Positions 28,577-50,962 of a stretch of DNA of 64,000 nt are shown piece by piece. Each line of letters begins with the position of its first letter. Position 1 is the stretch's first letter. The notes beneath the pieces were generated by a model. The model made no database searches, was not told where the DNA came from, and was given only the letters and a program-made list of their open reading frames with translations. This DNA comes from Octopus sinensis (taxonomy: Eukaryota). Both the position numbers and the translations under genes were made by a program. The stretch covers positions 558,001-622,000 of the forward strand of contig NC_043025.1 in the NCBI RefSeq assembly GCF_006345805.1. Direction: 5' to 3'.

Positions 28577-28648
28577 AATGTCTTTAAATTCGAAAGCGCC
28601 GTGAATGCTCCTTCTTTGATGGTTGCTATGTTGTTGGAACCAAGATAT
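28577..28648 (-). CDS. LRR exon 10, 72 nt: YLGSNNIATIKEGAFTALSNLKT(L)
   Basis: tactctttctttactgctatag acceptor, gtaagt donor, open 24-codon LRR. Confidence 0.88.
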
Positions 28649-30968
28649 CTATAGCAGTAAAGAAAGAGTAACATAGATTTATGGAAAATATTTGTGATAC
28701 GACATCAAACACTGTGACTTCAGAATGAAAGGAAGAAAAGGCAGAAAGATAACGAAGAAGAAAAGGAAGAAGAAGGACGAGGAGGTGAAGAAGAAAAAGA
28801 AAAAGAAGAAGAAGAATAAGTAGAAGAAGAAAGGAGAAGAAGGAGAAGAAAAAGAAGGGGAAGAAGTAATAGGAGGAAAAAGGAGGAGGAGGATGGTAAA
28901 AGGGAAGAAGTAGTAGCGGAAAAAGTAAAAGAAAGAAGGAGAGGAGAGGAGGATGACTATAGATGAAGAAGTAGAAAGAAGAAGAAGAAGAAGGAGAGGA
29001 GAAAAGGAGAGAGGAGAGATTGGAAGAATAATTAGGAGAAGATGAAAAAGAAGAAGAAGATGAAGGAGGAGGAGGATGAGAATAACAAAAAGAAGGATAT
29101 AAGAAGAAGAAAGAGTAGGAGGAGAAGTAAATGTTGAAGTAGAAAGTAGTAGAAGAAGAAGAAGAAGAAGAAGGAGAAGAAATATAAGAAGAAAAAAAGA
29201 GTAGAAAAATGAGAAGAAGAAAAGAAAAAGGAGGAGGAGGAAAAGAAGAAGAAGAAGACGCAGAAGAAGACGCAGAAGAAGAAGAAAAAGAAGCGGGAGA
29301 GGAGGGGCGGAGAGGATTGGGAAGAAAGAAAGAAGAGGAAAAAAGAAGTAGAAGAAGGAAGAGGAAAAAGGAGAGGAAGCAATGAAGGGGAAAAGTAGTG
29401 TAGAAGAAAATAACAAGAATAAAAGATAAGGAGGAAGGAAAGAGGAGGAGGAGTAGTTGAAAAAATTGAAAGTAGAAGAGGATGTAGGAGAAGAAGAAGA
29501 AGAAGAAATATGTAGAAGCGAGAGAAGAAGAAACAAAATAAGGAGAAGGAGGAGAAGAAGAAGAAGAATAAGAAGACGAAGAAGGAGAAGAAGAAGAAGA
29601 AGAAGAAGAAAAACGAGCAGGAGAGGAGGGGAGGTGAGAATTACAAGAAGAAAAATGAGGAGGAGGGGCGGAGTGGAGCGGGAGAGAATTTAAAGAAGAA
29701 AATGAAGAATAAGAAGAAGAAAGAAATTAGAAGAGGAAGAAGGAGTAGGAGGAGTAGAAAGAAGAAAAAAGAAAAAGAAGAGAAGCGAGAAAGAAGAAGA
29801 AAAAGGAAAAGAAGAAAAAGAAGAGAAGAAAAAGAAGGAGGAGAAGGAGCAGCAGGAGGAGAGGAAGAAGAAGGAGAAGAAGAAGAAGTAGAAGAAGAAG
29901 AAGGAGAAGGAGAAGGAGAAGAAGAAGAAGTTGAAGAAGAAGAAGAAGAAGAGGGAGGAGAAGAAGAAGAAGGAGACGAAGAAGATACATTGAAAATTAT
30001 GGCGTTCAAGATGAAACTGAAAATGTTCTTAAAATATCAGGAAATAATTCAAGGATAGAAAGAAATATTTTGGGCGAGAAAACATGGCAGAAAATTCAGG
30101 GAATATGCGGAATCAGAAATCAACATATTCAAATGCACTCATACACATTCTTATATTCATAGTATCAACGACGGAATGCGGTATGCACACTCACATCACA
30201 CATATTCCCACTCACCCTTGTGGACATATGGTGAGAGAGATTATTTATTTCATATCGTTTCATTGTCACAAGAATATTAGAAAACACACGCTCACATGAA
30301 ATATATCAGCTGTTTAATTGTATCAGGCCAAATATCCCATCTTACAAGTACAGTAGTATTTCAGGTTTACAGATAGAATGTATGTGACTATATTATTCGA
30401 ATATATATTTTCCGCTTCCACTTCAGTTGCTCTATTACATAAATAACGTGAAGTGAATGACAAAATTCGAAGTTGAATGATAATATCGAAACACGAAGAG
30501 AATATTGAAATAAAAATGGAGGAGGATGCAAAATATAAAATAAAGGAATAATATAGTCACATTTCACACAGAACTACACTTATATATGAACATACACATA
30601 TACTTCAGCTAAAAATATTTGATGCAAACATGTAAACTCACAAACGTTACCATTTCTAATACAAATTCATATCAAAATCATTGAAATTGGGGAACAAAAA
30701 TGAGTTATTGAGATGCGAATTGAAACAAAGCAACTACAATAAAGGAACATTATATTTTTCCTATTATTTCACTTTCACTCTCAAATTCTCTCTCTTTCTT
30801 TCCATTGTCTCGCTCTCTCATATTCTCTTTGTATCTTCCTATGTCGTGTTCATTCTACAAATTCGAATTGATTTTGTTTGGCGCAGTCTGAAATTTTTAC
30901 ATTGTGAGCTGATATATCAGCATCAATTATTACTTTCGGAAAAGTATCAAGAAACTGAACGAACTTAC

Positions 30969-31040
30969 AATGTCTTTAAATTCGAAAGCGCCGTGAATGC
31001 TCCTTCTTTGATGGTTGCTATGTTGTTGGAACCAAGATTT
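30969..31040 (-). CDS. LRR exon 9, 72 nt: NLGSNNIATIKEGAFTALSNLKT(L)
   Basis: AG/GT splice sites, 72 nt, phase 2-2, LRR consensus. Confidence 0.88.
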
Positions 31041-48143: not shown

Positions 48144-48215
48144 AATACGTTTAATTTTGAAAGCCCCGTGAATGTACCTTCTTTGATGGTTGCAATGTTG
48201 TTCCCTCGCAGATCT
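48144..48215 (-). CDS. LRR exon 2, 72 nt: DLRGNNIATIKEGTFTGLSKLNV(L)
   Basis: AG/GT splice sites, 72 nt, phase 2-2, LRR consensus. Confidence 0.9.
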
Positions 48216-50890
48216 CTATAGCAGTAAAGAAAGAGTAAAATAGATTATATGGAAAATATTTGTGATACAACATCAAACACTGTGACTTGAGAATGAAAGG
48301 AAGAAAAAGAAGAAAGATAACGAAGAAGAAAAGGAAGAAGAAGAAGGAAGAGGAGGAGGCGAAGAAGAATTAGAAGAAGAAAGGAGAAGAGGTAGAAGAA
48401 AAAGAAGAGCAAGAAGGAATAGGAGGAAAAAGGAGGAGGAGGCTGATAAAAGGGAAGAAGATGAAGGAGAAAAAGTAAAAGAAGGAGAAGGAGGGGGAGG
48501 AGGAGGAAGAGAATAACAAGAAGAAGAAGATAAGAATAAGAAAGACGAGGAAGAGGAGGAGGAGAAGTAGATGAAGAAGTAGAAAGAAGAAAGGAGGAGA
48601 AAAAGAAGAAGGAGAAGAAGAAGAAGTAGATGAAGAAGAAGACGAAAAAGAAGGAGGATGAGGAGGGGAGGGGAAGAAGAAGAATTGCAAGAAGAAGGAA
48701 GGGAAGAACAAGAAGAAGAAGACGTAGAAGAAGTTGAAGCAGGAAAAAGAAGAAGATGAAGAAGAAGAAGGAGGAGGAGGAGGAGGAGAAGGAGAAAGAG
48801 AATAACAAAAACAGAAGTTAAGAAGGAGAAGGAGGAGGAGGAGAAGATGTAGAAGAAGAAGAAGAAGAAGAAGGAAGAGGAGGAGTAGGAGTAAGAAGGG
48901 GAGAATAAGTAGGAGAAGATGAAAAAGAAGAAGAAGATGAAGGAGGAGGAGGAGGAGGATGAGAATAACAAAAAGAAGAATATAAGAAGAAAGAGGGGTA
49001 GGAGGAGAAGTAGATGTAGAAGTAGAAAGAAGAAGAAGAATATAAGAAGAAAAAAAAGAAATAGAAGAATGAGAAGAAGAAAAGAAAAAGAAGGAGGAGG
49101 AGGAAAAGAAGAAGAAGAATTAGAAGAAGAAGCAGAAGAAGAAGAAAAGGAGCAGGAGTGGAAGGGAGGAGGAGAATTACAAGAAGAAAAAGGAGGAGGA
49201 GGGGCGGAGAGGATTGGGTAGAAAAAAGAAGATGAAAAAAAGAAGTAGAAGAAGGAAGAGGAAAAAGGAGGAGGAAGAGGATGATAGGGAAAAAGTAGGT
49301 GTAGAAGAAAAAGAATAAGAATAAGAATAAGAAGAAGGAGGAGGAGGAGGAAGGGTAGATGAAGAAGTTGAAAGTAGAAGAAGAAGAAGGGAAGAAGAAG
49401 AAGACGAAGAAGAAGAAGACGAGAAGAGAAGAAGAAGAAGAAGACGAAGAAGAAAAAGAAGAAAAAAGAAAATGGAGCAGGAGAGGAGGGGAGGAAGAGA
49501 ATTACAAGAAGAAATAGTAGGAGGGGCGGAGTGGAGGGGGAAGAGAATTTAAAGAAGAAAATGAAGAATAATAAGAAGAAAAAAATTAGAAGAGGAAGGA
49601 GGAGGAGGACCAGGAGGAGGAGGAGCAGGATGAGGAGGAGGAGAAATAGAAGAAAAAGAAAAGAAGAGAAGAAGAAGAAGAAGAAGATGAAATAGAAGTG
49701 GAAGAAAGAAAGAAGAAAGAAGAAGAAGAAGAAGAAGAAGGAGGAGGAGGCAGAAGACGAAATGACAAAAAGATGATGAAAAAGGCAGAGAAGGAGAAGT
49801 AGAATAAGAAAAAGAACAAAAGAAGAAGGAGAAGAAGAAGAAGAAGAAGAAGAAGAAGAAGAAGAAGAAGAAGAAGAAGAAGAAGACGAAGAAGAAGACA
49901 CATTGAAAATCATGGTGTTTAAGATGAAACTGAAAATATTTTCGAAATATCAGGAAATAATTCAAGGATAGAATGAAAAATTTTGGGCGAGAAGACATGG
50001 CAGAAAAATCAGGGAATATACGGAATCAGAAATCAACATATTCAATTGCACTCATACGCATTCTTATATTCATAGTATCAACGACGGAATGCGGTATGCA
50101 CACTCACATCACACATATTCCCACTCACCCTTGGGGAAATATGGTGAGAGAGATTATTTATTTCATATCGCTTCATTGTCACAAGAATATTAGAAAACAC
50201 ACGCTTACAAGAAATATATCAGCAGTTTAATTGTATCAGGCCAAATATTCCAGCTTACAAGTACAGTAAGTATTTCAGGTTTACAGATAGAATGTATGTG
50301 ACTATATTTTTTGAATATATATTTTCCGCTTCCACTTCAGTTGCTCTATTACATAAATAACGTGAAGTGAATGACAAAATTCGAAGTTATGTGATAATAT
50401 CGAAACACGAAGGAGAATATTGAAATAAGAAATGGAGGAGGATGTAAAATATAAAATAAAGGAATAATATAGTCACATTTCACACAGAACTACACTTATA
50501 TATGAACACACACATATACTTCAGCTAAAAATATTTGATGCAAACATGTAAACTCACAAACGTTACCATTTCTAATACAAATTCATATCAAAATCATTGA
50601 AATTTAGGGAACAAAAATGAGTTATTGAGATGCGAATTGAAACAAAGCAACTACAATAAAGGAACATTATATTTTTCCTATTATTTCATTTTCTCTCTCA
50701 AATTCTCTCTCTTTCTTTCACATTGTCTCGCTCTCTCATATTCTCTTTGTATATTCCTAAATCGTGTTCATTCTACAAATTTGAATTAATTTTGTTTAGT
50801 TCAGTCTGAAATTTTATACATTTGTGAGCTTATATATCAGCATCAATTATTACTTTCGGAAAATAGTATCAAGAAACTGAACGAACTTAC

Positions 50891-50962
50891 AATGTCTTTA
50901 AATTCGAAAGCCCCGTGAATGCTCCTTCTTTGATGGTTGAAATGTTGTTCCCTCGCAGATCT
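50891..50962 (-). CDS. LRR exon 1, 72 nt: DLRGNNISTIKEGAFTGLSNLKT(L)
   Basis: AG/GT splice sites, 72 nt; phase matches the LRRNT exon donor (TT|A = Leu), giving ...PTNVEYLDLRGNNI... Confidence 0.92.

Follow-up and report, generated by a model that had tools for sequence, protein, structure and literature searches.

A family of octopus leucine-rich repeat genes with probable diversifying selection on a predicted binding face

A 64,000-nt stretch of the Octopus sinensis genome (RefSeq assembly GCF_006345805.1, contig NC_043025.1, positions 558,001 to 622,000 of the forward strand; hereafter the window, whose own positions are used below) carries part of a gene in which each 72-nt exon, or cassette, encodes one leucine-rich repeat (LRR). 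With a probability of about 0.8, we read it as an extracellular LRR gene of octopus whose repeats each have four codons, for residues on the predicted binding face, that are selected for new specificities and that are likely copied as patches between neighbouring exons. The evidence comes from the window, its paralogues and related proteins, and the claims on binding and selection are predictions from sequence.

A search for LRR motifs within AG-exon-GT segments identified ten exons of the form AG-72 nt-GT, all on the minus strand and spanning 50962 to 28577. The repeats are 24 residues long and of the typical class, LxxLxLxxNxL, with residues numbered along this motif. Each intron splits the L4 codon, so that the coding content of an exon runs from x5 to x3 of the following repeat. 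The cassettes are E1 (50891..50962; x5 D, x7x8 RG, x3 T), E2 (48144..48215; D, RG, V), E3 (45406..45477; N, NE, T), E4 (42658..42729; Y, YE, F), E5 (40570..40641; Y, GS, T), E6 (38061..38132; Y, YE, Y), E7 (35657..35728; N, GS, T), E8 (33300..33371) and E9 (30969..31040), both identical to E7 as exons, and E10 (28577..28648; Y, GS, T), identical to E5. The repeat units are tandem duplicates of 2.1–2.7 kb with all exons in the same phase. The introns between cassettes are 2.0–2.7 kb long and each has a GAA-rich tract; eleven such tracts lie within 26327..51201 (ten of 1.15–1.7 kb and one of 155 nt), and on the sense strand each is a pyrimidine run ending about 80–105 nt before a cassette acceptor.

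The array is preceded by an exon at 54869..55077 (minus strand, ATG at 55059), which encodes the initial Met, a predicted signal peptide and an LRRNT, and whose residues 42, 44, 46 and 47 make the first variable strand. The Pfam match of this LRRNT (E=0.002) is below the cut-off, as is LRR_8 for each exon alone. At the other end, the start of an eleventh cassette, E11 (26190..26221, minus strand; x5 D, x7x8 WN), is cut by an assembly gap of 100 N (26090..26189). E11 is one base short in the window, and the missing base is present in C11691, a contig with a 98.8% identical copy of the array, which has the same cassette order (14 mismatches in 15,601 non-GAA bases) and breaks at the same cassette. 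No family exon was found in window positions 1–26100 or in the next 40 kb of the scaffold (66 kb downstream searched). The window gene is the 5′ half only, and its 3′ half is lost from the scaffold at the gap.

The first-pass annotation of the window had claimed that the variation between cassettes is concentrated on the LRR's concave face. The ten exons bear this out: 11 of 18 concave-face nucleotides segregate versus 10 of 51 others (Fisher p=0.002), although the ten exons comprise only 7 distinct sequences and are not ten independent draws. A larger sample agrees. The window and 59 further loci gave 140 exons; 5 with a faulty splice donor, splice acceptor or reading frame were dropped, as were 9 from C11691, which left 85 unique cassettes of the window's type (type A), 30 of a second type (type B) and 6 cap exons, that is, 115 unique A and B cassettes. 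In type A, the number of different residues was 11 at x3, 12 at x5, 14 at x7 and 14 at x8, versus 1–4 at framework sites and 2–7 at the other x sites. The corresponding numbers in type B were 5, 7, 11 and 8, versus 1–4 elsewhere. Distinct triplets reached 23 at x7 and 20 at x8, and the intron maximum in 256 sliding windows was 13. At the first and second positions of six concave-face codons, type A showed 17.8 changes per site, compared with 3.2 in flanking intron and 3.1 in other codons; the type B values were 4.9, 0.6 and 0.8. Codon divergence no higher than that of intron or other codons, which the annotation had named as the outcome that would count against it, was therefore not seen among the 115 cassettes. 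Aromatic residues, also expected by the annotation at the variable sites, fill 69 of 340 type A slots at the four sites and 1 of 510 at six convex-side sites. The same four positions are the most variable in O. vulgaris (26 repeats from 11 proteins).

Several details of the earlier description need adjustment. The variable x positions are x3, x5, x7 and x8; x2 and x10 are not elevated. Replacement at several bases does occur at the two codons before Asn, but not only there, since x3 is changed at several bases too. Four of the five x7x8 codon pairs listed fall within 28577–50962 (cgaggg in 2 exons, aacgag in 1, tacgag in 2 and ggttcc in 5), and the fifth, tggaac (WN), sits outside it in E11, at about 26190–26221. 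The flanking intron is nearly invariant close to the exon (aligned diversity 0.037 upstream and 0.040 downstream) but not farther away, as the 1050 nt downstream differ by 1.5–7.5% between most units.

Rates were estimated by a grid MG94 codon analysis (alpha, synonymous; beta, nonsynonymous) on three trees per cassette type. For the class x3, x5, x7 and x8, the estimates were alpha 2 and beta 8 in type A (likelihood ratio (LR) 31.5), and alpha 0.25 and beta 8 in type B (LR 31.2). Beta exceeded alpha for this class on all three trees of each type, with p from 2e-7 to 1e-13. The same analysis indicated purifying selection on the type A framework and about neutral rates at convex-side positions, and gave no support for selection at x2 and x10. 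Positions x12 and x18 alternate among few residues with mixed signals, which were treated as recombination homoplasy. In a tree-free network, the ratio of nonsynonymous to synonymous change (dN/dS) at x5, x7 and x8 was 2.9 in type A (p=0.0003) and 15 in type B (p=0.00005), compared with 0.99 and 0.84 in the exon core. Positions 42, 44, 46 and 47 of the LRRNT exon, which is single-copy, were picked by register alone and gave LR 10.9 (p=0.001, 17 unique exons), and the start of the LRRCT showed a weak elevation in the same register (LR 5.1, p=0.023, 8 exons). The excess at x3, x5, x7 and x8 across cassettes is nonsynonymous.

How the patches change was examined with the hexamers that encode x7x8. 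The 46 hexamers of type A are joined by 34 single-base and 11 two-base steps, and the 21 of type B by 19 and 1. As the links are mostly single-base steps, the repertoire could have been built by point mutation. The "wholesale replacement" described earlier therefore suits the transfer of finished patches but not the origin of the repertoire, where 34 of 45 type A links are single steps. In type A, patch distance and flank distance are uncorrelated (rho −0.02 to 0.05), whereas flanks and core correlate at 0.4–0.5. Near-identical gene copies reveal five multi-base events, three of which match the adjacent cassette, with tract lengths under about 112 nt. E2 of the window has, at two adjacent bases, the letters of its neighbour E1, the likely donor; its C11691 counterpart agrees there with a distant cassette (tract 2–56 nt). 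Between contigs C12515 and C12516, cassette 1 is changed at 7 of the 12 patch bases, and the C12516 version agrees with the next cassette, a donor that carries indels (tract 12 to about 96 nt). In C11815, x2x3 of cassette 4 match the next cassette (tract under about 112 nt). Short-tract gene conversion from the adjacent unit is probably the simplest reading of these swaps. Two points weigh against it: no donor for the two type B events, 2 of the 5, was found among 200 cassettes, and the swaps could be assembly consensus errors between similar units. No decay of linkage with distance was detected (p=0.25 and 0.80). Patch exchange between types A and B was considered and rejected, as one shared 12-mer and three shared 9-mers are not above column shuffles (p=0.35 and 0.24). 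The E2 copy at C11691:22026-22082 has GG as x7x8 and a difference at N24, and an in-frame deletion of 15 nt in it takes out five convex-side residues.

Copying of patches might instead be a targeted, possibly somatic rewriting of the 12-nt patch, similar to that of the variable lymphocyte receptors (VLRs), with the near-identical contigs being somatic variants of one animal. We regard this as improbable. Near-identical copies differ at 16 of 694 patch sites versus 279 of 121,706 intron sites (summed by hand over ten pairs that share members), and in one pair the differences amount to 7 of 12 patch bases versus 0 of 54 core bases, as targeted rewriting would predict. However, when scaled by the divergence of paralogues in each zone, the patch excess falls to about 3–5 fold and rests on two events, in a test whose score cut-off excluded the two cassette pairs with the most changes. 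Such an excess is expected of untargeted conversion, which is visible only where cassettes differ. The splice sites are normal, the gene order is complete, and the exchange between types A and B does not exceed chance.

A neutral local hot spot of mutation, caused by the GAA tracts or by CpG decay and acting on unconstrained surface residues, is largely refuted. It would account for the many synonymous codon variants at type A x7 and for the upstream pyrimidine tracts, which precede 63 of 85 type A and 28 of 31 type B cassettes and 0 of 5 cap exons. But the stretch of intron that separates tract from exon is one of the least variable regions, and cap exons without a tract, as well as the LRRNT exon, vary in the same register. 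The silent site of N9, which adjoins x8, is invariant in both types, and third positions of the four type B codons change 1–2 times versus 4–9 at first and second positions. Other surface positions have dN/dS near 1. In simulations of such a hot spot, with genealogies shuffled and decoupled from the flanks, 0 of 60 runs reached the observed LR in each type (maximum 11.3 for A and 13.0 for B). Very unlikely indeed is an array, or a variation, made by collapsed repeats and sequencing error: the assembly does hold many indel errors and near-duplicate contigs and cuts the gene at a gap, but C11691 repeats the cassette order with the few mismatches given above, O. vulgaris proteins repeat the pattern, and errors would not choose four codons in register, so that the artefact stays live for individual swap events only.

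Diversifying selection has its own difficulties. Single sites are weaker than the class: type A x7 does not reach significance by itself, with alpha at least equal to beta on two of the three trees, and the network test gave no significance for x3 taken singly (p=0.27 and 0.6). The codon models assume single-base steps and can be inflated by multi-base conversion, and also by recombination at the observed four-gamete incompatibility of 39%. The simulations contain single-base events only, the likelihood code uses a coarse grid with kappa fixed, and near-duplicate contigs other than C11691 were kept in the sample. The window copy is among the more homogeneous, with 5 of its 10 cassettes sharing an identical x7x8. 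A site test in the available text of Ritschard et al. found no individual selected residues in their group 3, an octopus receptor group compared below (PMC6408891). Taking these points together with the nonsynonymous excess, diversifying selection on the predicted binding face, as the first-pass annotation had proposed, is still very probable.

The structural placement was examined with AlphaFold models of two paralogues, which show an LRR solenoid with a predicted local distance difference test score (pLDDT) of mostly 80–97 and have the Nogo receptor, LINGO and NGL as closest folds. In the better model, DSSP assigns the strand to x3-L4-x5, which straddles the exon junction, in agreement with the earlier claim that each strand is split over two exons. 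Mapping of the variable sites on the strand holds for x3 and x5; x7 and x8 lie just past its end and are taken into it only in a single-sequence model. In the parts of two accounts available to us, it is established for LRR folds that side chains at these x positions face the concave surface (PMC3341825, PMC3900441), and by analogy x3, x5, x7 and x8 are predicted to form the ligand-binding face. By its 24-residue repeats, LRRNT and LRRCT caps and modelled solenoid, the predicted product is an extracellular LRR protein of the typical class.

The LRRNT exon search retrieved 22 proteins (of 26 candidates) at 78–97% identity, all from O. vulgaris or O. sinensis where named, and 61 genome matches, 31 of them at 78% identity or more; 26 fetched LRRNT exons reduced to 17 unique sequences. 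The cassette pattern had 126 genome matches versus 5 for a control, and 2 of the 100 matches listed were unrelated. Of 909 candidates in a search by the C-terminal region, 48 were hits, all Octopus where named. Relatives from O. bimaculoides that cover over a third of the query are 45–52% identical, which suggests that the family is a young Octopus expansion. Paralogues combine type A exons with a type B exon and end in a cap exon and an LRRCT, the latter observed in paralogues only. At loci L006-L015 and L023-L026 the two types tend to alternate; they have separate intron flanks and cores about 43% different, and nevertheless vary at identical four codons.

Two architectures follow the repeats. 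Protein P0001 has Pfam matches to GPS (E=1e-10) and 7tm_2 (E=7e-34), and on this sequence evidence the family includes adhesion G protein-coupled receptors (GPCRs). GAIN-continuing genes are present on C8838, C8188 and C10617/8, and on C10617 and C10618 the LRR cassettes, LRRCT and GAIN-type exons are collinear. Paralogues on C9761 and at C5:115.9 Mb have as their last exon a hydrophilic one that contains an in-frame stop, an end shared by seven protein models from two species; no GAIN exon was found in the 4 kb (C9761) and 17 kb (C5) fetched beyond it. These ectodomain-only paralogues are predicted secreted counterparts of the receptor. Both (C9761:4280-37762 and C5:115.91-115.96 Mb) end after a second, tentatively SEA-like module, with no GAIN or seven-transmembrane (7TM) sequence nearby. 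The closest named relatives of the window gene are P0001, with GPS and 7tm_2, and P0004/P0048, with a GAIN-type tail, and from them the window gene is somewhat more likely to be of the GAIN type than ectodomain-only. A Toll-like receptor was rejected, as none of 11 family proteins scanned, P0062 included, had a TIR hit. P0062 of O. bimaculoides, named toll-like receptor 5 in its source, has no TIR or transmembrane hit, shares its C-terminal modules with the family and is likely misnamed. A Cys-rich module of P0001 (residues ~225–312), which ends in CCxGxLCN, is doubled or tripled in P0017 and P0019; its motif may recall that of three-finger/LU domains. This module and those following had no Pfam, PDB, Atlas or fold support, with pLDDT below 50, and an HRM hit was weak (E=0.0008). 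At C10:79.83-80.25 Mb, more than 20 long open frames (~550–710 codons) match the 7TM at 27–33% identity and are clustered, apparently as a GPCR array poor in introns.

In paralogues, the isoforms of the annotation differ from one another by entire 24-residue exons. One gene has 13 models, and another has four, each without a different one of five exons. These isoforms are annotation products, and short reads on similar exons can mislead; the chance that exons are skipped in this family is about even.

Two steps of the proposed mechanism are apparent in the cassettes themselves, namely tandem duplication of same-phase units, by which repeats can be gained or lost in frame, and nonsynonymous diversification of x3, x5, x7 and x8 with conserved type A framework codons. 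Short conversion tracts would keep flanks and framework alike and carry patches from cassette to cassette, and exon skipping may pair x3 of one exon with x5, x7 and x8 of another. Fast-changing non-self ligands would be recognised by the product, either the ectodomain of an adhesion GPCR or a secreted relative made of the ectodomain only. We lean towards microbes or parasites as ligands, with an immune role; otherwise they may be conspecific or neural partners. A wider proposal is doubtful: that vulgaris-group octopuses hold a young antibody-like repertoire of 17 or more distinct LRR genes, with adhesion GPCR forms paired to secreted ones, driven by selection, patch conversion beside GAA tracts and exon skipping, with some rewriting possibly somatic.

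The pattern is as expected of a recognition protein pressed to keep changing its binding target. In cephalopods, little is known of highly diversified recognition receptors, and most adhesion GPCRs are not known to have such a variable binding face. The family points to four codons per repeat as candidate specificity determinants, suggests how these may be reshuffled and comes in signalling as well as predicted secreted versions. This puts screens for ligands, tests of induction by infection and a hunt for somatic variants within direct reach.

Elsewhere in the window, an interrupted telomere-type CCCTAA array of 382 copies (7582–9863), about 0.57 Mb from the scaffold start, adjoins a 3.7-kb satellite with a 10/25/35-nt period (9868–13564). 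A GC-rich segment that abuts the gap (~24000–26089) resembles a LINE-type retroelement by eye only, and a degenerate segment at ~57560–58620 resembles a mariner-type transposase remnant, also by eye only.

VLRs are defined by an incomplete germline gene that is assembled somatically from flanking cassettes. The octopus cassettes lie in line as exons and have canonical splice sites, and identity with VLRs was rejected. As far as the available account of lamprey and hagfish VLRs goes, the LRRNT-LRR-LRRCT solenoid, concave-surface variability and conversion-like diversification are shared, whereas VLR diversification is somatic and deaminase-mediated and the octopus cassettes belong, as spliced exons, to many germline genes (PMC3900441). 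No description of the octopus LRR cassette family was found in the literature, with subscription papers outside the coverage; in the accessible text of a hemocyte study, 48 unspecified LRR transcripts are mentioned (PMC4199593). The family probably falls in the octopus-specific adhesion GPCR expansion of Ritschard et al. Their group 3, in the sections available, has GPS and an adhesion 7TM, LRRs in 5 of 22 sequences, branch-level positive selection and expression in axial nerve cord, suckers, skin and gills; the exon-cassette structure and ectodomain-only members belong to the family here and do not appear in those sections (PMC6408891).

The ROCO genes of the brown alga Ectocarpus are close in design. 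The portions of two accounts at hand describe LRRs of 24 residues with a 72-nt exon for each, shuffling of exons, positive selection on the concave face and alternative splicing of LRR exons (PMC3341825, PMC11378527). Ectocarpus ROCOs signal through a ROC-COR GTPase, whereas the octopus protein is predicted to be extracellular, with LRRNT and LRRCT caps and a GAIN-7TM or no anchor; no Pfam hit to ROC-COR was found in the 11 family proteins scanned. The probable transfer of sub-exon patches between adjacent cassettes in octopus does not figure in the available part of the ROCO account (PMC3341825). The HNWD genes het-d and het-e of Podospora show, in the text available, concerted evolution of WD40 repeats within and between members and four diversifying interaction-surface codons per repeat; they differ in that HNWD is a WD40 propeller of fungal allorecognition with known specificity, while the octopus LRRs are separated by introns and known from sequence alone (PMC1805685). 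The octopus cassettes have the features of HNWD-like repeats, a shared mode of evolution and not homology. An evolutionary design known from brown algae and fungi thus recurs on an unrelated signalling scaffold.

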